Shown here: positions 25,650 through 44,900 of the stretch, one piece after another
Position numbering within the stretch: the first letter of the stretch is position 1
How the letters are laid out: every line of letters starts with the position of its first letter
Source of the DNA: an uncultured virus (IMG/VR IMGVR_UViG_2061766007_004224)
Lineage: Duplodnaviria > Heunggongvirae > Uroviricota > Caudoviricetes
IMG/VR virus record: IMGVR_UViG_2061766007_004224
Strand: one strand, 5' to 3'
DNA length: 64,000 nucleotides
Notes under the pieces: generated by a model
The model's input: only the letters and a program-made list of their open reading frames with translations
What the model was told of the DNA's origin: nothing
Databases searched by the model: none
Position numbers and translations under genes: made by a program

Positions 25650-25722
25650 ACGGAGGTCGTCTAAGAGAGGACGTTGGGTTCTCAGCCCGACAACGAAGGT
25701 TCAAACCCTTCCCTCCGGTCCA
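25650..25722 (+). tRNA. Phage tRNA-Glu(CTC), atypical
   Basis: Cloverleaf: CGGAGG/CCTCCG, GTCT/GGAC, TTGGG-TTCTCAG-CCCGA, GAAGG-TTCAAAC-CCTTC, encoded CCA. Confidence 0.75.
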
Positions 25723-25782
25723 TTAAAAGAAGTCCGTTTGGTCGCGGGCTTCTTTTTCATTTTCAAAAAGGAGGCGCGTCGG

Positions 25783-27177
25783 ATGCCGACAACAGGCTCA
25801 ATCTTCCAAGGCGTGACTACCGCGCCGTGCAGAGACTTCATCGCTCTGCAAATCGTCGCCGCAGACAAAAAGCGCGTCTACATGCCGTGCGCGGGCCGCT
25901 TCGGTTCGGCTCTGGCGTACATCGGACACGCGAAGAAAACCGAAGGGCTGCTGACCTCGGACATCTGCCTGTTCAGTTCCATGATCGGCTACATGTTCGA
26001 CCAGCGGCACAGCATCGAAGAGCTGGACATCAGGAACGAAAGCGTCATTCAGCCCCGCAGTCAGGAGCCAGACGAGATCGTCGCCGCTGCCATGCTCGCC
26101 CTGAAGTATGCTCAGGTGAAGCCGACCTCACTGTACGGCGTGAACATGCGCCGGGAAATCCTCTCAAACCGTGACCGCTACCTTGACCAGATCATCGAGC
26201 GGAACAAAGTCATGTGCGATCTGCTGAAAGGCTCGCGCTATGATATTCAGGATGTTTGGGATGTGATCGAAGAAGCGGCAGAGGATGAAGACGCTGCCCT
26301 GTTCGTCAACGTCCCCACCTACAAGGGCGGCTACGAGCGGATGTTCAAAGACAGTGGCATCAAATGGAATGAGCCGCAGATCGGACAGTTCAATCCTGAC
26401 ATGTTCGCCCAGATGGTCGAGCGGCTGACCGATGCGAAGTGCGACGCTTTCGTCTATTCGCAGAAGAACCTCGACAAAATCCCGGAGGACGGATGGAAGA
26501 CCGTGTATGCCCAGCCGTATGGCCCGGATAGGACCGATTACGTCGTGGCAAACCATCATACCAAGCAGAGCTACGCGGTCCAATCGACCAAGGTTAAGCC
26601 CATCAAGATATACCAGATATACGACGACGAGGAGATCACGCCTGACACCAAGATCGAGTTCGTTCAGGTGGATGAGACGACCGCGCTGTACTACCGCGAT
26701 CTGTTCGTCCATAAGCTCGGCACCACGACCGCCGAGGCGTTCTACCTCATGCTCATTGACGGCAAGGTAAACACCGCTTTGGGCCTCAGTATGCGCGATG
26801 TGTTCACGCAAAAATCAAAATACATCGGCGAAGTCTTCGGCATCAGTCGCAGTTCTGTGAGGTATAAGAGGCTGGGCAAGCTGTTCATGATGTGCCTCAC
26901 GTCCGGCGATTTCCTCAAAATGCTGATGAGCAAATACAACTTCGGTGTTCGTCAGCCCCTCGGCATCAAGACTTCATCGCTCACCACGCATTGGGAGGGC
27001 AAAACTGACAGGTCAGTCATGAAGCTCACCTACCGCGAGCAGTTGCCGTCCGGCACCTTCCGGGTCATTTATCAAGGCGACTTCCGGGAAGACACCTACC
27101 GCGACTGCATCGTAACGTGGCTGAAGCGCTGGGGAGATAAAAAACGGGAGGAAGTAAAAAATGGAGATTCTGCTTGA
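25783..27177 (+). CDS. Adenine-methyltransferase-like protein with extra C-terminal (possibly GNAT-like) domain
   Basis: Motif I-like MPCAGRFG, LTSDI, motif IV-like FVNVPTY. Confidence 0.65.
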   Translation: MPTTGSIFQGVTTAPCRDFIALQIVAADKKRVYMPCAGRFGSALAYIGHAKKTEGLLTSDICLFSSMIGYMFDQRHSIEELDIRNESVIQPRSQEPDEIVAAAMLALKYAQVKPTSLYGVNMRREILSNRDRYLDQIIERNKVMCDLLKGSRYDIQDVWDVIEEAAEDEDAALFVNVPTYKGGYERMFKDSGIKWNEPQIGQFNPDMFAQMVERLTDAKCDAFVYSQKNLDKIPEDGWKTVYAQPYGPDRTDYVVANHHTKQSYAVQSTKVKPIKIYQIYDDEEITPDTKIEFVQVDETTALYYRDLFVHKLGTTTAEAFYLMLIDGKVNTALGLSMRDVFTQKSKYIGEVFGISRSSVRYKRLGKLFMMCLTSGDFLKMLMSKYNFGVRQPLGIKTSSLTTHWEGKTDRSVMKLTYREQLPSGTFRVIYQGDFREDTYRDCIVTWLKRWGDKKREEVKNGDSA

Positions 27178-28027
27178 CATCGGAGCGGGCCTGAAGATCG
27201 CCAAGGTCAACGTCGAGGAACTGCGTGAGCAGGACCTGAACGCCCGCCACATGGACAAAAAGATGTTTGAGCGCCTGAGCGCCAACATCCGGCACGATGC
27301 CCGTCTCGAGAGCCTGCCCTTCGTCGCTCAGACTGAGCGTGGGCTGGAGATCGTCTCTGGACACCACCGCGTCCGCGCAGCCCGCAGCGCAGACCTGAAT
27401 GAAATCTTCATCATTCTGGATGATACCGGGCTGTCTCAGGACGAGATCAGATCGAAGCAGTTGTCGCACAATTCGCTTCAGGGCGAAGACAACATGCAGT
27501 TGGTCAAGGAAATCTACGCCATGATCGAGGACGCTGACCAGAAGCTGTCGGCGTACATCGACGCTGATCTGGAGCTGATGTTCGACAAGGCGCAGGTCAA
27601 GGATGTCACGATTGACTTTGACATCAAGCACATCCTCGTCACGTTCCTGACCTACGAAAAGGCCGTGTTCGACCGGGCCGCTGAGAAGATCAACGGCAAG
27701 TACGATGAGCTGTACGTCGCCGACATGAAGCAGATCGAGCCGTTCACTCAGGCCATGACCCGCGCCGGGAAGGAGTACGACATCCGCGCCACCTCCACCC
27801 TGTTCTCGAAGATGGCTGAGATCGTGCTTCAGCATCTCGGCGAAGAGATCGACGAAGCCGAGCGCACAGCCATCCGTGACATCATCGGTACGGCGTACAT
27901 CCCCACCGAGGCCGCTCAGACCATTCAGGCCGCCATCGACAAGATGAAGAAGAACGGCGAAATCACCAACGCCAACAAATGGCAGGCGCTCGAATACATG
28001 GCTGCGGACTACCTCGGCGGGCGCTGA
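27161..28027 (+). CDS. ParB/Srx N-terminal domain protein
   Basis: NARHM, L..NI, EIVSGHHRVRAAR, QLSHN. Confidence 0.85.
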   Translation: MEILLDIGAGLKIAKVNVEELREQDLNARHMDKKMFERLSANIRHDARLESLPFVAQTERGLEIVSGHHRVRAARSADLNEIFIILDDTGLSQDEIRSKQLSHNSLQGEDNMQLVKEIYAMIEDADQKLSAYIDADLELMFDKAQVKDVTIDFDIKHILVTFLTYEKAVFDRAAEKINGKYDELYVADMKQIEPFTQAMTRAGKEYDIRATSTLFSKMAEIVLQHLGEEIDEAERTAIRDIIGTAYIPTEAAQTIQAAIDKMKKNGEITNANKWQALEYMAADYLGGR

Positions 28028-31586: not shown

Positions 31587-32996
31587 GTGGATATTCATGA
31601 TCTGCTTGACAGCTTCATCGACCGTGTAAGTCCACGCCCTGCCCGTTTTCTGACCCGCATGTGGGGCGATCAGCAGAAGGCTATTACCTATCACGAGCTG
31701 AGAGATGCGATCTTAGATGGCTCTCTCAGCCTCGATTACCTCAGCCAATGGGAGCAGGATTATAGCGTGTTCCTGACTGAGTGCTACGGACCCGTTGTGG
31801 ACGAGGCAGCGAAGGCAGCCCACGAGATGCTGGCCGCTCAGTACGGCGGTTATCTTCAGGACCCGATGCGCGGCCTCATGGACAATTACGTCCGAGATCA
31901 CGGTGGGCGGCTGATTCGAGAAGTCAGCGAAGGCCAGTACATGGCAATCAATACGCTGGTACGTCAGGCAACGCTGACCGACACGCTGACCGTTGACGAG
32001 CTGGCCCGCTGCATCCGGCCATGTATCGGCCTGACCCAGCGGCAGGCACAGCAATGCAAACGCTTCTATGAGCAGTTGCGCGAGGACGGGTACAGCAAGA
32101 ACGCCGCCCTGAAAAAGGAGGCCAACCTCGCCGCCAAGATTCACCGCCGCCGTGCTGCACTGATCGCCCAGACGGAGATGGCCTACGCAGCCAACGAAGG
32201 CATGGATGCAGTCATTCGCCAGAACGTCGAGCAGGGCATCATCAGCCCGGACGTTGAGAAGGAATGGTCCACCGCCAGAGACGAGCGCGTCTGCCCGGTC
32301 TGCGGCGGTCTCCACGGTGAGAAGGTGCCTGAAAATGAACCATTCTCAAATGGCGTGATGCTGCCACCTGCTCATCCCGGTTGCAGGTGCGCGGTGAAGT
32401 ATCATCTGAAACCTGCAGGAAAATCTGTTACGGAAGAATTGAATTGGGAAGACAAACTCACAAAAGAGGAAAAACAAGCGGTCATAGACTACTCAGGCAG
32501 TTCGTATAGTGCCGTTAATTCTTACATGGGCGGGGAGGAAGAATACGGAACAGATGCTGTTAAGCGGATTGCTCATGACCTCGAAAGCGCTTTGAGCAAA
32601 GCTTCCCTCCCAGAAAGAATGACGGTTTATAGGGGAACAGACCTCCGAGAAGTCGCCGGACTATTTGGCGGGAACCCAAACAGGTATTATCGCTTTGAAG
32701 AGATTGAAAAGCTCGAAGGTTTAATCGGAAAGACTGTAACGAACGACAGATTTGTCAGCACTTCATACGACGAGGTGCTCCCACAATACGCACAAAAAGG
32801 TGTTGTGATGCACATATCATTGCCTGAAGGCGCACAGGCTGCCGACATTAGTCATATTTCAAGGCACAAGGAAGAAGAAAGAGAAGTGCTGATTAATGTA
32901 GGTCAAAAAATGAGAATCACAAGCATACAAGCCAATGCGGACGAAGAAGGGTTTGTGAATGGTTTGATTCACCTTTTTGTTGAAGTTCTGCGTTAA
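31587..32996 (+). CDS. MuF/minor head protein fused to ADP-ribosyltransferase
   Basis: RAALIAQTE, DERVCPVC, PPAHPGCRC, then VYRG, FVSTS, EREVL. Confidence 0.88.
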   Translation: MDIHDLLDSFIDRVSPRPARFLTRMWGDQQKAITYHELRDAILDGSLSLDYLSQWEQDYSVFLTECYGPVVDEAAKAAHEMLAAQYGGYLQDPMRGLMDNYVRDHGGRLIREVSEGQYMAINTLVRQATLTDTLTVDELARCIRPCIGLTQRQAQQCKRFYEQLREDGYSKNAALKKEANLAAKIHRRRAALIAQTEMAYAANEGMDAVIRQNVEQGIISPDVEKEWSTARDERVCPVCGGLHGEKVPENEPFSNGVMLPPAHPGCRCAVKYHLKPAGKSVTEELNWEDKLTKEEKQAVIDYSGSSYSAVNSYMGGEEEYGTDAVKRIAHDLESALSKASLPERMTVYRGTDLREVAGLFGGNPNRYYRFEEIEKLEGLIGKTVTNDRFVSTSYDEVLPQYAQKGVVMHISLPEGAQAADISHISRHKEEEREVLINVGQKMRITSIQANADEEGFVNGLIHLFVEVLR

Positions 32997-33499: not shown

Positions 33500-34702
33500 A
33501 TGCCCACGAAACTGAAAGGCTTGAAAATCAAGCGCGTTGCGCTGGTAGACGAGGGCGCGAATCCTGATGCGTACATCAAGTTCGCCAAAAGTAAAGACGG
33601 TGAAGAACCGATGGCTGACGTTGGAATGACCAGCGAGCAGGCCATCGGTTTTTTCGAGCGTATGGCGGCGATTGTCCGTAAAGCATTCTCAGGTGAGAAT
33701 GTGGACAAGTCCGCGTATACCTTCGCCGAAACGAAGGAGCAGCGCAACTATGACAAGGTGATGTCCGATGAAATCTATCCGACCATCTGGGCGTTTACGG
33801 ACAGCATTTGCTCCATCCTGAACGACCCTGAGAAGACGGATGATGAAAAGGCATCCATGATGAAGCAGAGCGTCACGGAGTTTTCCGATACCTTTAGTTC
33901 CTGCGCCGGAGCATGGTCTCAGGCTCAATCGGCGCAATCGAACATCGTAAAGGACGAAGCCGTGTTGACCAAGATGCGTGACAGCATCGCCGCCCTGATC
34001 GAGAAGAAGGCTGACAGCGGTGAGGAGCAGCCGAAAGATGAGGGCAAGGACAATGACGGCCCGGAAGATTCCGACGACGACAAAGACGACGGCGGCGAGG
34101 AAAAGCCGCCTGTGAAGAAAGGAGCTACTGAAATGGAGTTCGATACTTCCCGAATGACCCCCGAAGAAAAGGCTCAGTTCGATGATCTGGCGAAGCGGTT
34201 TGGCAAGCCCGAAGAGAATCCTGCGCCTGCCCCCGCTGCCAATCCTCAGCCCGCCGAAAATCCGGCTCCCGCTGGTGACGACGTGAACAAGGGCCTGACC
34301 CCTGAGCTGAAGGCCGAGATCGAAGCCCTCCGCAAATTCCGTCAGGATGCTGAGGAAAAGGAGCTGGCCGAAGTCGCCAAGCGCTATGAGATCATCGGCA
34401 AGAAGCCCGATGAGCTGGTGCCCGTCCTGAAGTCCCTGAAGGCGGCTGGCAAGGAAGCCTACGATCAGTTCATCGCTGGTCTGGACGGTGCTGTGAAGGC
34501 TGTTGAGGAGAGCGGCATGTTCTCCGAAGTCGGCAAGCGCGGCGCTCCCTCCACATCCGGCGACGATGCGTGGGGCAAGATCGAAGCCGCCGCCCACGAA
34601 ATCCAGAAGGCGAAGCCTGACATGCGCTGGCCCGATGCGGTTGACGCTGCCTGTGCTGCCCATCCCGATCTCGTGGAACAGTACGAGAAGTCCCGCCGCT
34701 AA
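33500..34702 (+). CDS. Putative scaffolding / head assembly protein
   Basis: LKIKRVALVDEGANP N-terminus; acidic and Pro/Ala-rich linkers; position. Confidence 0.75.
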   Translation: MPTKLKGLKIKRVALVDEGANPDAYIKFAKSKDGEEPMADVGMTSEQAIGFFERMAAIVRKAFSGENVDKSAYTFAETKEQRNYDKVMSDEIYPTIWAFTDSICSILNDPEKTDDEKASMMKQSVTEFSDTFSSCAGAWSQAQSAQSNIVKDEAVLTKMRDSIAALIEKKADSGEEQPKDEGKDNDGPEDSDDDKDDGGEEKPPVKKGATEMEFDTSRMTPEEKAQFDDLAKRFGKPEENPAPAPAANPQPAENPAPAGDDVNKGLTPELKAEIEALRKFRQDAEEKELAEVAKRYEIIGKKPDELVPVLKSLKAAGKEAYDQFIAGLDGAVKAVEESGMFSEVGKRGAPSTSGDDAWGKIEAAAHEIQKAKPDMRWPDAVDAACAAHPDLVEQYEKSRR

Positions 34703-34728
34703 TACCGGGTGGGAGAAAGGAGAAGATC

Positions 34729-35124
34729 ATGTCTTACCTGAATCACAGTTACAATGACAGCCCGGTCATTCACGGCGAAGCGAACGCTGCCCTGACTGCC
34801 CCGGCCATGAAAGCCTTTGCCCTGAACTCCAGCGGCAAGGTGATCCTGCCTGCTGCTTCCGGCGATTTCGCCGTGGGTATCGCTCTGGCGAATACCGACG
34901 ACGTGGCCGCTGGTGGCCGTATTGACCTTCAGGTCAAGGATGGCTGCTACGCCATCGCTGGCGAAACCATCAAGCGCGGCGACCTGCTGATGGCTCACAC
35001 CGATGGCACGCTGAAGAAGGCGACCGCTGGCAAGAATGTGCTGGCTATCGCTCTGTCCGATGCTGCCTCTGGTAAGCCCTGCGAAGTCTACATCATGCGG
35101 ACCCTGATTGCGCCTGCGTCGTAA
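34729..35124 (+). CDS. Capsid decoration/cement protein (DUF2190-like)
   Basis: 131 aa Ala/Gly-rich, just upstream of capsid gene. Confidence 0.75.
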   Translation: MSYLNHSYNDSPVIHGEANAALTAPAMKAFALNSSGKVILPAASGDFAVGIALANTDDVAAGGRIDLQVKDGCYAIAGETIKRGDLLMAHTDGTLKKATAGKNVLAIALSDAASGKPCEVYIMRTLIAPAS

Positions 35125-35151
35125 TCAGCCGCAGAGAAAGGAGAATGACCC

Positions 35152-36171
35152 ATGAATGCTATGAGCAATGAAGCCATCGCTGTTCAGATCGCCAAGGGCT
35201 GGAAGCCCAACAACTATCTGACCAACCTGAGCGTGGCTCACTTCCAGCCTGACGACTGGTTCGTTTCCCCGTTCGTGTTCCCCATCCTGCCCGTGCAGCT
35301 TTCCACCAGCTACTACTACAAGTTCAACAAGGCCGATCTCGCCCGTGACAACGTGCAGAGGAAGCCTGAGTTCGGCAAGGTTCAGCCTATGATCTTCGGC
35401 ACCGACAAGGAAATCTATTCCTGCGAGGTCGATCAGGTCATTATCGGTCTGGACCAGATTCGCTCTCAGGACTACAGCCGCGCTGGTACTCCGGGCATCT
35501 CTGACCCCCGCCGTGCGAAGGTTCGTCTGGCAACCGAGCAGATGAAGGTCCACATGGACCGCGTCTTTGCTGAAGGTTTCTTCAAGGCTGGCGTGTGGTC
35601 CACCGAGTACGAAGGCAAGTCCAGCACTCCCGGCTCCGGCGAGTTCTGGAAGTTCGACAACGCCAACTTCGACCCGATCAACTTCTTCGGCGGTCTGCGC
35701 ACGAAGATGATGCAGAACGGTCGCCGCAAGCCGAACGTGCTTGCGCTGGGCGTTGAAGCCTACGAAGGCCTGAAGCAGAACCCTGACATCCTCGACCGCG
35801 TGAAGTATTCCGGCTCCACCGCCAACCCCGCCACCATCAACCAGAATGTGCTGGCGCAGTTGCTGGAGATCGACCGCGTTGTCGTGCTGAACAGCGTGTA
35901 CAACGCTGGCGCTCTGGGTGTCGAGGATATGCAGTTCGTCTGCGATTCCAAGGCCGCCCTGCTGTGCTACGCCGCTCCCAACCCCGGCATCGACATCGCC
36001 ACCGCTGGCATGACCTTTGCGTGGGATATGCTGGGCAACGGCCAGTACCTTGCCTTCGATCAGTGGGAAGGCGAGAAAGGCACTCACACCGAGTTCATCG
36101 AGGGACTGTGCAGCTACACCCCCAAGAAGGTGTGCGACGAGCTGGGCTACTTCCTGAAGGATTGCGTGTAA
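35152..36171 (+). CDS. Major capsid protein
   Basis: LTNLSVAH, FPILPV, RKPNVLALG, PDILDRVKY; strong codon bias. Confidence 0.9.
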   Translation: MNAMSNEAIAVQIAKGWKPNNYLTNLSVAHFQPDDWFVSPFVFPILPVQLSTSYYYKFNKADLARDNVQRKPEFGKVQPMIFGTDKEIYSCEVDQVIIGLDQIRSQDYSRAGTPGISDPRRAKVRLATEQMKVHMDRVFAEGFFKAGVWSTEYEGKSSTPGSGEFWKFDNANFDPINFFGGLRTKMMQNGRRKPNVLALGVEAYEGLKQNPDILDRVKYSGSTANPATINQNVLAQLLEIDRVVVLNSVYNAGALGVEDMQFVCDSKAALLCYAAPNPGIDIATAGMTFAWDMLGNGQYLAFDQWEGEKGTHTEFIEGLCSYTPKKVCDELGYFLKDCV

Positions 36172-36181
36172 GACCTTATCC

Positions 36182-36325
36182 GCACCGCCCTATAAGGGTA
36201 GCCGCATGCTTTTCACCTCCTGGGCATGGGTGACAGCCTCGCTTCCGTGGTACGCCCTGCCCTCGCGTACAGCAGCCCGACCACCTGCTGTTGTCCACGG
36301 AAGTGCAAAGGCGGTCTAACGGTGC
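36182..36325 (+). ncRNA. Candidate structured RNA element (strand uncertain)
   Basis: Nested helices incl. GCTTCCGTGG/CCACGGAAGT, GTACGC/GCGTAC, ACAGCAG/CTGCTGT, GCACCG/CGGTGC. Confidence 0.5.
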
Positions 36326-36356
36326 TTTTATTCCATGAGAAAGGAGGACGTTGACC

Positions 36357-36659
36357 ATGCAGAAATTCATCAGCAATAAGCCGTGTAGGTTTGGCGAGCG
36401 TAATTTCATGATCGGTGAGGAGATTCCCACTGATCTGATCGCCCCAGCCCGCGTCCCTGCGCTGCTGAAGTACGGTACTATCGTGACCGTCGAAGTGCCG
36501 GACAAACAGCCTGCTCCCGCTCCCGTTGAGCCTGAGCAGACCGACCCTGCCGCCACGGGTGAGAACTCCGAGGAACCTCACGCCGAAGAACAGGCTCCCG
36601 TTGAGCCTGAGCAGCAGGAAAAAGCCGCGAAAGGCAATGGAAGGAAGGCTCAGAAATGA
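36357..36659 (+). CDS. Hypothetical head-associated protein
   Basis: SD AAGGAGG; APVEPEQ repeated twice. Confidence 0.75.
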   Translation: MQKFISNKPCRFGERNFMIGEEIPTDLIAPARVPALLKYGTIVTVEVPDKQPAPAPVEPEQTDPAATGENSEEPHAEEQAPVEPEQQEKAAKGNGRKAQK

Positions 36660-37102
36660 GCACCTACACCTATAATCCGTCTGAGATCAGCAGCAGGTCG
36701 GTAAGCCGCGCCCGCTTTGAACTCGGCGATGTCATGGTCGATGGCGGGGAAGAAACCTGTTACCTTGCGGATGAAGAGATCGAGGCTGTGCTGGCTGAAA
36801 CGTCCGGCTGGAAAAGGTGCCTATTCAGACTGGCAGATGCCGTCTGTATGCGGTTGTCCTTTGAAACCAACTGGCGTGACGACGGTACGGCCTTTGATCT
36901 GAACCAGCGTGCAGAACGATGGATGAAACTGCGCGACCGCTTTGAGAAGGAAGCCGAGATCGAGGCATGCACGCCTCAGTCCGGGGCCGTAGAAGCCTCT
37001 CTCCGCAACGAAGAGGACGGCGGCCATTACTTCTATGGTGGCATGCAGCAGTCTCCGTATGTGAAGCCTCCGCTGCCTTTTGAAGGTGATACAGGATGCT
37101 GA
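36656..37102 (+). CDS. Head-tail connector/adaptor
   Basis: RFELGD, LADEEIEA; position. Confidence 0.75.
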   Translation: MSTYTYNPSEISSRSVSRARFELGDVMVDGGEETCYLADEEIEAVLAETSGWKRCLFRLADAVCMRLSFETNWRDDGTAFDLNQRAERWMKLRDRFEKEAEIEACTPQSGAVEASLRNEEDGGHYFYGGMQQSPYVKPPLPFEGDTGC

Positions 37103-37467
37103 AACACGGTCGCATCGGCATAACCCGCCCCGAACAGTTCCCGAAGCTGTTCCACGTTTACAGCGTAGCCACGGACACGTCCGATGTCGGCAGAATCCGG
37201 CACGGCGACAGGGAGCTTTACACCTCCCTGCGGTGCATCCTGTCCATAGCGAAGCCTGAAGAAGCGGAACGCTTCAGTCAGATGGGTGTGACGGTCACAC
37301 ATACCATCTTCCAGCGCGGCGCACCCGCCGCAAAAGAGCATGACATCTTTGCTTTGGTGAAGAAAGGCGCGGAAACGCGCTTTTTTGAGGTTCAGGCCGT
37401 TCACGACAAAGGCGAGATGAACATAGATACCACCTATTACTGCAAAGAAAGGGGGGACAGGAAGTGA
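37096..37467 (+). CDS. Head closure protein
   Basis: Size and synteny; VTHTIFQRG. Confidence 0.65.
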   Translation: MLKHGRIGITRPEQFPKLFHVYSVATDTSDVGRIRHGDRELYTSLRCILSIAKPEEAERFSQMGVTVTHTIFQRGAPAAKEHDIFALVKKGAETRFFEVQAVHDKGEMNIDTTYYCKERGDRK

Positions 37468-41132: not shown

Positions 41133-41173
41133 ACGGCACGTCTGACGGCCTGACGGATAACCCTTATAAACTC

Positions 41174-41204
41174 CCACAGGAGGGCAGTCAAGGCCCTCCT
41201 GTGG
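41174..41204 (+). terminator. Hairpin after tube gene (terminator or stabiliser)
   Basis: CCACAGGAGGGC / GCCCTCCTGTGG, 12-bp stem. Confidence 0.65.
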
Positions 41205-41982: not shown

Positions 41983-44900
41983 GTGGACCAAGTGTACCGC
42001 ATTGAAATTCCGATTGAAGCGATAAACGAAACGGACGCTTCTGCCCTCCGTTCGCTGGAAACGGCTTTGCAGCGCATCTTCACTCAGGCCAACAAGAGCA
42101 AATCTGCCGCGCAGGACGCAATGGACAGCATCAGCAGCAGCGCGTCCGGCGCGGCTTCTTCTATGAAGACCCTTGACGGAACACTGGACAAAACCGCTCA
42201 GGGCTTCGAGAAAACCGCTGATTCCGCAGAGGATGTCGGCACGGCAGGCGAGNNNNNNNNNNNNNNNNNNNNNNNNNNNNNNNNNNNNNNNNNNNNNNNN
42301 NNNNNNNNNNTAAGGACACCGGGAAGGCCGCGAAAGAAGCCGGACAGGGCGCATCCTCCGCTTTCAATCAGGCAGGCCAGCAGGTGGACAAGTTCACCCA
42401 GCGCACCGAGAAGAGCCAGCAGTCGCTCAGGAAGATGTTTGCCCAGAAGCTCCAGCTCACGCTGGCAGCCATCGACAAGGTGTCTCCCATCCTGAAAAGC
42501 GTCGGTTCTTCCCTCAAAAACCTGACCGCGAAGGCATGGCACGTCGCCGTCAGAATGACCGACCTTGTGACCGCGCCATTCCGAAAGCTCGTGCAGATGA
42601 TAACCAGCCCCATTGCCATGACCCTATCGCTGGCAGGTGTGGGGCTTGGCGCGAGTTCCTTCCTTACCACCTTCACAGATTTTTCGGCGGGCATGAGCAA
42701 CGTGAAGGCCCTCTCTCGTGCGACCGATGAGGAATTTGAGCGTCTGACCGAGACCGCTGAAAACCTCGGCGCGACTACGAAATTTACGGCGGCTGAAGCC
42801 TCCGAGGGTATGCAGTACCTCGCCATGGCTGGCTGGGACACCAACCAGATCATTGAGGCCATGCCCGGTCTGCTGGACCTCGCTGCGGCAGGCGCAACCG
42901 ATCTCGGCACCGCTGCCGACATCGTGTCTGACGTGATGACCGCCATGGGCATGAGCGCAGATCAGGCCAGCACCGCCGCTGACATATTCGCCCGCACCGC
43001 CACCATGACCAACACGACCATCAGCATGATGGGCGAATCACTGAAATACGCAGCGCCTATCGCTCATTCCTTCGGCCTGTCCTTGTCCGAAGTGTCAACG
43101 ATGGTCGGCATGATGGGCAATGCGGGCATCAAAGCGTCTCAGGCTGGTACTGCCATCCGTAGCTCCCTGCTCAGTATGGCCTCTCCGTCCAAGGAAGCGG
43201 CTGACCTGATGAAGCAGTTGGGGCTGTCCTTCAGCAACGCGGACGGCAGCATGAAGAACATGGGCCAGATCATCGGCAATCTTCAGGAGGCTTTCGCTGG
43301 CCTGACCGCAGAGCAGCGCCTGAATTACGCCGAGACCCTGTTCGGTACGATGGCTTCCTCTGCATGGCTCGGCATGATCGACCAGGGCGCGGACGAGTAC
43401 AACCGTCTGTATCAGTCCATCGACAACAGCACTGGCGCGGCGAAGGAAATGTCTGAAATCCAGCTTGACAACCTTCAGGGCGACATGACCCGTCTGCAAA
43501 GCGCAGTTGACGGCATGAAGATTTCCCTGATGAAAGAACTGGACCCGTACCTGCGTAAAGGCGTTCAGTGGCTCACGGGCAAAATCCCCATGCTGACCGA
43601 GAAGATCGGTGAGTTCGTCACCAAGGGCATTGAAAAGGCCAAGGAGTTGAAAAACTTCCTTCAAGGTGTATTCACGTCCGCAGACTTCCAGAACGCGGAC
43701 GGATTCATCGACAAGTTCTTCGTGGCGTGGGACAAGATCATCGCCGAACCGTTCCAGAAGTGGTGGGACGGCGGCGGTAAAGACACCATCCTCGGCGCAG
43801 TCAGCAAGATCGGCAAGAATCTTGGCGACCTCTGGCATGGTATCATCAAAGGCATTTTTGCCGCCCTGAAAGGCGAAGACATCGACTTCGGAGGCATGAA
43901 CCTGTCCGGGCTTGCCCAAGCTGGAGCTGAGGCAGCGAAAACCTTTATTACATCCTTCAAGGAAGCCTTCAATCTGGGCGACCTCTGGGACAGCGCCCCC
44001 GGCCTGCTGAAAGCCGGGCTTTTTGGCTTTGGCGCTTTGAAGCTCGGTGGCGGCGCTCTCGGCATTGCAAAGACTATCGGCCAGATCAAAACCGCGTTTG
44101 TCGGCGTAAAAGTGGCAGCGGGAGCAGCGACCACCGCGACGACTGCGTTTGGCGCTTCTGCCGCTGCTGGGGTTGCCGGGACAAGCAAACTGGCCGCAGG
44201 GCTTGGTCTTGTAAAGACCGGGCTGGCTGCGATTCCTGTATGGGGCTGGGTGGCTACTGCTGCTCTCGCCGCAGTTGTGGCAGGCGTGGCGCTCTACAAC
44301 AAAGCGCAGGAAGACGAGCGCCAGCGCATCCTGCATCTGGGAGATTCTGTCGTTGCCGCTGTTGATAAATGCAAAGAAAGTGCTGCACAGGTCAATGAAG
44401 CGATGGACGTGATCGGCCAGATCAAAGAAATCGAGTTGAAGGTTACTGAGAACAAAGGTGGCAACGCTCAGGTCATCAAGGAATTTCAGGACGAACTGAG
44501 CAAGATCGAGTATGACGCTATCGTCCTCTACGCGAAGATGGCAGACAAGGCCATCTCTGACGAAGACAAGGCGAAGTTGCAAGAGGAGCTGAATCGGCTC
44601 GAATCCGAAAAGCAGGCGTTGATTCATACCAAACTCGCAGGAATCAGCCGCATCGACAGGGCCTTGCTCAATCTCAAGATTGCCACGCTTGCGCTGAATG
44701 ACGCTCAGATATATTCGTCCCTGAATGAGCCTACAGAGGCAGATATAACCGCGATGAACGAGAAAATCGCAGAAATCCAACTGCAAAAGGCGCAGGTCTA
44801 CGCACAGTTGTCCGATACAGTGGACCCAGAAGAAGTCGCGGCACTGAATGCGACCATCACCGCGCTTACGCTGGCAGAGTTGACCCTGAAAGCGAAGCTC

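Follow-up and report, generated by a model that had tools for sequence, protein, structure and literature searches.

Phages of Clostridia-type bacteria were found to contain a family of small RNAs with four arms. One member occupies positions 36182-36325 on the + strand of the window, i.e., the whole 64,000-nucleotide stretch of viral DNA analysed here, between the major capsid gene and a gene for 100 amino acids. With a probability of roughly 45%, we regard it as a portable cis-acting RNA, in which the loop of the third helix (P3) would pair with the next gene's Shine-Dalgarno (SD) sequence and step its translation down. The parts of the RNA and the two flanking genes are as follows.

35152..36171, + strand: major capsid protein gene (phrog_1005 major head protein, E 3.3e-67).
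36182..36325, + strand: four-way-junction RNA, defined by folding and covariation, in a single copy (no second copy was found within the window).
36182..36186, + strand: 5' strand of P1, pairing with 36321-36325; four of the five pairs are doubly changed among 26 members.
36187..36199, + strand: P2 hairpin with a U-A-N-A-A loop (36191-36195; UAUAA in the window), which probably takes a T-loop fold; the most conserved sequence of the family.
36201..36231, + strand: P3 hairpin (GCC/GGT, bulged G36204, CATGC/GCATG), with double changes at 6 of 8 pairs in the plain alignment and 8 of 8 in the fitted one.
36213..36221, + strand: anti-SD loop L3, TCACCTCCT; CCTCC is kept in 25 of 36 members, even after loop insertions of 30-90 nt.
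36232..36316, + strand: P4 arm, defined by covariation, made of an 8-bp junction helix (36232-39/36309-16), a bulge, a lower helix (36240-49/36295-305) and a variable distal part.
36250..36270, + strand: inserted hairpin, variable and unconserved; both L102, a relative with a 99% capsid, and rumen RNA contigs have it replaced.
36270..36290, + strand: tip hairpin with a 9-nt loop, CCCGACCAC; among 36 members, 26 have GACC in their distal arm.
36306..36308, + strand: three-nt bulge CAA beside near-invariant CU/AG pairs, the proposed receptor of the P2 loop; its last A is present in 26 of 26.
36317..36320, + strand: junction linker TAAC, with its U in 26 of 26.
36326..36329, + strand: short U run 3' of P1, with no terminator call; in 25 of 36 members, TTT is no more than 2 nt away from P1.
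36340..36347, + strand: SD of the next gene, AAAGGAGG, by complementarity the proposed partner of L3, 16 nt past P1.
36357..36659, + strand: next gene, 100 amino acids, the proposed regulated gene (phrog_17721, E 2.5e-7).

The stop codon of the capsid gene lies 10 nt upstream of the RNA, and the surrounding operon is of the head-tail type of a contractile-tailed phage. The product of the next gene (36357-36659) had no Pfam match, and DUF7210 was obtained as a sub-threshold lead only. A sigma-70 scan of the + strand from 34500 to 37200 detected no promoter, and no terminator was called at the element; therefore, the RNA most likely lies within the late transcript. Assembled contigs of gut metatranscriptomes from three studies cover the operon, and two RNA-library contigs from two of the studies, strandless and possibly DNA, bridge the capsid gene and the whole element. 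Both of them stop at 36346, and the depth figures imply that a contig of run X1 goes on to about 36390. Because that contig seems to continue and the strand is unclear, 36346 was not taken as a transcript end.

Several other features of the window were recorded. A MuF-like head-morphogenesis gene with a C-terminal ADP-ribosyltransferase-like domain is located at 31587-32996 (phrog_2468, E 7.8e-35; phrog_3895, E 5.3e-13). At 25738-28027, directly before the terminase genes, a gene that is both Dam-like and GNAT-like (PF22555, PF22559) stands together with one that weakly resembles ParB, possibly as a DNA-modification pair. The late operon is preceded by a single isolated tRNA-Glu(CTC) at 25650-25722, whose acceptor and T arms are unusual. 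A long hairpin 3' of the tail tube gene (41173-41204), with GGAGGG/CCCTCC in its stem, may be a second step-down point in the same operon. A run of N (an assembly gap) is found at about 42200-42260, near the start of the tape-measure gene.

The preliminary description had called the region a multi-branched RNA-like structure of no recognised family, with far more structure than a terminator needs, and strong covariation together with the lack of an Rfam match bears this out. The + strand folds at -63.1 kcal/mol (z = -3.11) and was better than 199 of 200 shuffled sequences, with 1 of the 200 equally stable, and the value for the - strand was z = -1.61. The conserved fold is a four-way junction, consisting of the closing helix P1 and the arms P2, P3 and P4. 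In a plain MAFFT alignment of 17 sequences, 97.2% of the cells were paired and 18 of the 35 pairs were changed on both sides, which none of 500 shuffles reached; slid controls were 30-47% paired. RNAalifold, unaided, yielded the same core. An alignment of 26 members fitted to the model gave 96.2% paired cells and 29 of 35 pairs changed on both sides, figures to be read with the leaning of fitted alignments toward their model in mind. The covariation is strong, and the RNA structure is real.

The strand is also clear from the family. There were 43 G-U cells vs 9 A-C cells, z was -2 or lower in 31 of 36 members on the + strand (median -3.9) vs 19 of 36 on the - strand, and the + strand was the more stable one in 32 of 36. 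The minus-strand frame MRLPL, which had been described behind a perfect SD, does exist in the window, but an SD, a start codon and a five-codon frame are present on the - strand of only 10 of 36 members, and the frame is a by-product of P2 and P3.

The folded members share the same four-way junction, three long-insert members only partly, on a compact scaffold of 85-210 nt across the family. P1 has 5 bp family-wide, and the sixth pair is specific to the window. Near-invariant positions are found at the P1/P2 junction and in the P2 hairpin (C-U-A-N-A-A-G) with the A-G behind it; in P4 they are the first pair and the CU/AG pairs, together with the three-base bulge whose last base is A, and a single U of the linker is near-invariant as well. 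In a second subfamily, the P2 loop is 7 nt long, AUYGMAA, and an A-rich linker precedes P2. The P3 loop and the distal part of P4 accept insertions of up to about 90 nt, and CCUCC remains on the 3' side of the loop. The P2 loop and the bulge are invariant, and the distance from the junction to the bulge is fixed at 8 bp. This combination fits a tertiary contact, in which the P2 loop would dock on the bulge of P4.

The sequences quoted in the preliminary description are all in place. Its closing helix (our P1), its CCCT-ATA-AGGG hairpin (our P2) and its long GCTTCCGTGG/CCACGGAAGT helix with two inner hairpins are supported by both folding and homologues. Two others fell away: TAGCCGC/GCGG-T-CTA can form in 1 of 36 members, the window alone, and TCACC/GGTGA in 9 of 36, and both clash with covarying helices, GCC/GGT, CATGC/GCATG and GACAGCCT/AGGCGGTC, which had been missed together with the conserved CAA bulge at 36306-08. 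Because these two helices are unconserved and clash with the covarying ones, the anti-SD is displayed in an open P3 loop and is not buried.

Capsid searches of three collections gave 240 loci, duplicates between the collections included, and the element is present in each of the 70 loci whose capsid identity is 69% or more. The capsid-clade set comprises 30 distinct sequences including the window, of which 28 are complete and two are cut by contig ends. A covariance model built from 13 clade members matched every one of 25 clade loci and none of 75 outgroup capsid loci. Related phages have the same capsid and downstream gene without the element, and in the more distant capsid loci, among those listed, the next gene mostly begins within about 10-30 nt of the stop. 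Since the SD of the next gene follows the stop almost directly in the outgroups, it is an insertion that separates the capsid gene and the next gene in the clade. A quick capsid tree was built from 92 representatives, and in it the 19 rows with the RNA formed one group with one change and a support of 85, the RNA label being based in part on the identity of at least 69%. A single insertion in the ancestor of the RNA-bearing capsid clade is the simplest reading. No copy elsewhere was found in the outgroup records and genomes G003-G005, G306 and G307, where the genomes may be incomplete. By tblastn spacing, the clade with the RNA has a post-capsid gene of about 70-130 aa, and the outgroups mostly have one of 150-225 aa.

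The RNA is not confined to this site. Pattern scans of viral contigs and model searches gave 12 distinct non-capsid members among the 36 analysed, all on the same strand as the gene or tRNA upstream of them. L280, L358 and L359 are located 3' of a phrog_1863 gene in what by eye is apparently the lysis region, L306 lies after ssb and before a promoter-like (sigma-A-like) sequence, and L353 lies between a minor head/neck gene and a tail terminator gene. L354, L360, L374 and L377 are found in tRNA clusters, and the element starts 0-1 nt from the 3' end of tRNA-Gly in L360 and L354. L355 (after a holin-like gene, by eye), L368 and L391 stand before a terminator-like hairpin with a U run. Its occurrence also after ssb, neck and lysis-region genes, at the 3' ends of tRNAs and ahead of terminators makes the RNA a portable module, and a role specific to the capsid is unsupported.

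Every searched genome with a match had one copy; the carrier genomes with a name are two MAGs, labelled Peptococcales and Bacillota. When genomes related to one carrier were searched with the models, 5 of 151 and 4 of 151 matched, and among the relatives of G001 it was 1 of 151 (G001 itself). The pattern-scan candidates, sorted by models, contained many chance matches, and the new members amounted to 2 of 9, 1 of 19, 0 of 13, 5 of 61 and 0 of 28. L397 (26 bits) was dropped as lying inside an ORF and L350 (23 bits) as lying inside a terminase-like ORF, and three further pattern matches were judged to be non-members by eye from the fold alone. For the members with the lowest scores (28-35 bits), membership depends on an exact P2 hairpin and on the junction geometry, and the most diverged ones were probably under-sampled by the covariance models used. 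Cultured phages and plasmids gave no match spanning 80% of a compact member.

tRNA-like sequences were observed near several members. T-arm or acceptor-like tRNA remnants adjoin the RNA in L360 (just 3'), L009 (4211-4245) and L377 (just 5'), and the L374 cluster (171-246, 498-571, 697-813) holds a tRNA-like or tmRNA-end-like fragment, tRNA-Gly(CCC), several hairpins and the four-way-junction RNA. The tip loop of the window (36276-36284) and its homologues, CYGACCAH, is complementary to UGGUYRG words, as in tRNA D-loops. In one case, the tRNA upstream of L377/L418, the D-loop has UUGGUCA, matching the tip-loop complement.

The anti-SD at 36213-36221 had already been noticed as complementary to the next ribosome-binding site, and this was confirmed: CCTCCT (36216-21) pairs with AGGAGG (36342-47) over 6 bp, 16 nt after P1. 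Members without CCTCC have other pyrimidine-rich, anti-SD-like words in L3. In 18 of the 29 members tested, the loop had its best complement within 130 nt in an SD that lies 5-26 nt past P1 and precedes a start codon; in the window itself, a site in the coding region scored slightly above the SD. Since any anti-SD loop fits most SDs, only a co-change of loop and SD counts. Such a double change is found in the lysis-region members (L280, L358, L359), where the loop CCCAUCCU (CAUCCU) faces an SD of (A/G)GGAUG. When the lysis-region and capsid-type partners were swapped, the duplexes weakened from -10.0 to -6.6 and from -8.3 to -5.9 kcal/mol. GAAAGGATG occurs only once in the 37-kb record of a lysis-region member, at its SD, and a rough count of AGGAGG-type vs AGGATG-type sites before open frames in the same record was 9 vs 4. 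Because the near-identical relatives share this co-change, it is one clean event only.

Other members give a mixed picture. The loop of L353, UCACCUU, faces an SD of GAGGUGA, and 0 of 26 foreign tails bind the loop better; the canonical capsid loop, however, binds the tail of L353 at least as well as its own loop does (-11.4 vs -9.2). In the sister pair L006/L044, GCCUCC faces GGAGAC with 4 bp only. No SD is in reach of L368/L391, L355 and L306, because a terminator-like element (in L306 a sigma-A-like promoter) intervenes, and no close loop partner was found for L009, L360, L374 and L377. L368 has a 9-nt complement of GAAAGGAUG in its loop, yet no such site is present in its 34-kb record. The A of ACCUCC is mostly kept, though most downstream SDs have A or G opposite it. 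The tally is one double change and one specific fit vs one mismatched lineage and four or more members that have no SD in reach. The terminator stem of L355 repeats CCCATCC, the word of the P3 loop of the lysis-region members.

The cis-acting RNA could work as follows. It would fold into the four-way junction right after the stop codon, or after the 3' end of a tRNA, in the polycistronic transcript, and the junction would probably be locked by docking of the P2 T-loop on the bulged A of P4. The resulting rigid scaffold may present the P3 loop, and a predicted pseudoknot between this loop and the tail would take up the next SD, 5-26 nt beyond P1. The next gene would then be uncoupled from its highly expressed upstream neighbour and translated less. 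The gene regulated in this way would be that of a small head-region protein here, and of a tail terminator or lysis-region protein elsewhere. A translational step-down switch, an RBS-binding sRNA and a virion-assembly RNA had been suggested before, and the step-down is the best supported of the three. The switch part found no support, since the pairing that would hide the anti-SD is unconserved and neither a ligand nor a partner was found; because no trigger was found, the RNA is possibly a fixed attenuator.

It is also possible, though unlikely, that the RNA is a discrete sRNA, which is cut from the phage transcript and pairs in trans, through its anti-SD and GACCA loops, with ribosome-binding regions of host or phage mRNAs, so that its placement serves expression only. 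The 5' and 3' ends are paired together, as such an sRNA would have them. L360 and L354 begin 0-1 nt after the 3' end of tRNA-Gly, L374 and L377 belong to tRNA clusters, T-arm-like remnants stand beside L009, L360 and L377, and L360 has a CCGACCA loop on a separate hairpin just outside the junction. The pre-terminator members retain the anti-SD loop, and the loop of L368 would pair at -13.8 to -15.3 kcal/mol with SD tails of the GGAUGA type that other members have. On the other hand, no own promoter was detected on the + strand of 34500-37200, GACCA tip-loop targets within the window were at chance level (15 matches vs 14.7 expected), the co-change in the lysis region is local, and the RNA-library contigs, strandless and possibly DNA, run from the capsid gene through the element. 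The trans-acting sRNA fits the tRNA-adjacent and pre-terminator members better than the cis clamp does, and the two are not mutually exclusive.

We consider it improbable that the RNA is a processing element, either a new self-cleaving class or a catalytically altered relative of twister-sister, which would cut or mark the polycistronic RNA. Its gene-independent siting between genes and its abutment on tRNA 3' ends recall the theta ribozymes (PMC10879173). The helix order is that of twister-sister opened in P3, with GCAAAG/CUC opposite the GCAAG/GCUCAU of twister-sister (PMC5660989), a U-N-N-A-A hairpin stands in the position of SL4, and the invariant bases concentrate at the junction, the P2 loop and the bulge. 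However, the scissile C-A step of twister-sister and its non-canonical loop are missing, and the corresponding positions are Watson-Crick paired and vary with compensation, whereas A63 is essential in twister-sister according to PMC11620745. The RF02681 model had no match at the element in five records, the invariant unpaired bases are few, and two RNA-library contigs span the entire element. If the RNA is self-cleaving after all, it would represent a new ribozyme class.

An elaborate terminator or 3' stabiliser, which would shield the upstream mRNA and reduce read-through with the anti-SD being incidental, is quite improbable. The RNA usually lies close 3' of a stop codon and follows highly expressed genes (capsid, ssb), and the TTT of 25 members would suit such a role. 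The U run of the window is only about 4 nt, and no intrinsic terminator, defined as a short GC hairpin with at least five U in 8 nt, was called in the window, and 11 of 36 members have no TTT. L355, L368 and L391 carry a separate ordinary terminator right behind the RNA, and the conserved loops and bulge are left unexplained by this function. A virion-assembly or packaging RNA like the phi29 pRNA, suggested by the position after the capsid gene and by a loose resemblance of the three-base bulge to the CCA bulge of pRNA, or a leader of the minus-strand micro-ORF with its SD and MRLPL, is very improbable, because 12 of 36 members lie after non-capsid genes or tRNAs, 75 outgroup capsid loci have no element, both loops are C-rich and cannot pair mutually, and the frame occurs in 10 of 36 members only while the G-U pairs favour the + strand.

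In tailed phages, hundreds of capsid subunits and a few copies of the next protein are made from one transcript, and this difference is rarely explained at the sequence level. Regulatory RNAs in the phages of uncultured Clostridia are almost unstudied. The natural loop/SD variants of the family define mutant and rescue pairs in advance. If the tertiary model is true, the RNA could serve as a portable tuning part for Gram-positive operons.

At gathering scores, Rfam recognised only the tRNA in the whole window and nothing at the element; the region 35900-36700 gave no match at E <= 10, and six loci with compact members had no meaningful match there. Loops that are exposed, rich in pyrimidines and complementary to SDs are a feature of the C-rich-loop sRNAs of Firmicutes (RNAIII, RsaE/RoxS). 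The phage RNA differs from these in that it has no promoter of its own, has a compact junction with a conserved core, is phage-borne and intra-operonic, and has no Rfam match. It differs from int-alpA (RF02996) in being four-armed with a T-loop hairpin and in not being tied to nuclease genes, and the RF02996 model matched 0 of five records at E <= 10. A literature search covering few subscription papers found no description of the four-armed family. The portion of the supplement of PMC10690425 that was searched, out of 10,006 listed viral structured-RNA candidates, contained no match, and the family could be among these candidates. We regard it as a new RNA family of a known functional kind, uncatalogued in Rfam. 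There is a real chance that it is more than a known functional kind.

Theta ribozymes are small phage RNAs set against tRNA 3' ends, as are 2 of our 36 members. They are HDV-like (PMC10879173), while the phage RNA is a nested four-way junction, and no HDV-family Rfam match was obtained, so that an assignment to the theta/HDV-like ribozymes was rejected.

The cobalamin riboswitch (RF00174) is closer in plan. According to PMC7367189, it is a four-way junction, in which L4, a T-loop with the consensus UAAAA, receives L6, and L5 kisses L13 downstream. The order of the parts, namely closing helix, T-loop hairpin, kissing-loop hairpin and receptor helix, is the same in the phage RNA, at the level of secondary-structure order only. 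The pocket-forming linkers J3/4 and J6/3 of the riboswitch correspond to 0 and 3-4 nt in the phage RNA (with a 5' linker of 6-8 nt in one subfamily), and the proposed loop partner is an SD in the open tail instead of the P13 hairpin. Cobalamin riboswitches precede B12 genes, whereas the phage RNA lies inside phage operons with capsid, ssb, tail terminator and tRNA neighbours. It was not classed as a cobalamin riboswitch: RF00174 scored 0 of five records over the cut-off and none at the element, the linkers are reduced, and the RNA is not a leader of cobalamin-related genes.

Four-way twister-sister (RF02681), according to PMC5660989, has the order P2, P3, P4 with SL4, and P5, and L1 consists of GCAAG/GCUCAU. 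The phage RNA shares the helix order, if twister-sister is opened in P3, as well as the U-N-N-A-A hairpin and the GCAAG-like and CUC-like strands. In twister-sister a bulged A (A7) lies beside A8-U61 and G9-C60, and the phage RNA likewise has a bulged A by A-U and G-C pairs. The SL4 hairpin of twister-sister has a U-A closed triloop, which takes up an extruded A from L1. The U-A-N-A-A loop and a bulged A are conserved in the phage RNA and may correspond to these, but it has no equivalents of the extruded G59, G35 and U36 and no C-A cleavage step; the scissile step of twister-sister is C62-A63 (PMC5660989, PMC11620745). The phage RNA has an 8-bp junction helix and a 3-nt bulge where twister-sister has a 5x6 internal loop. 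A permuted twister-sister was rejected, the catalytic-loop positions being paired, variable and mostly C-G. RF02681 gave 0 of five records over the cut-off and none at the element, a model that would miss a permuted form.

The boldest reading of these likenesses, which we hold to be doubtful, is a new tertiary-structured RNA class built on a T-loop and a bulged A with the helix order of twister-sister and the cobalamin riboswitch. It would act as a ligand-free clamp or as a new self-cleaving RNA between genes and after tRNAs, and through a re-programmable anti-SD loop, its folding or cleavage would be coupled to how the next gene is translated. The tertiary model, if true, would mean that a riboswitch, a ribozyme and a ligand-free translational clamp have one junction architecture in common.
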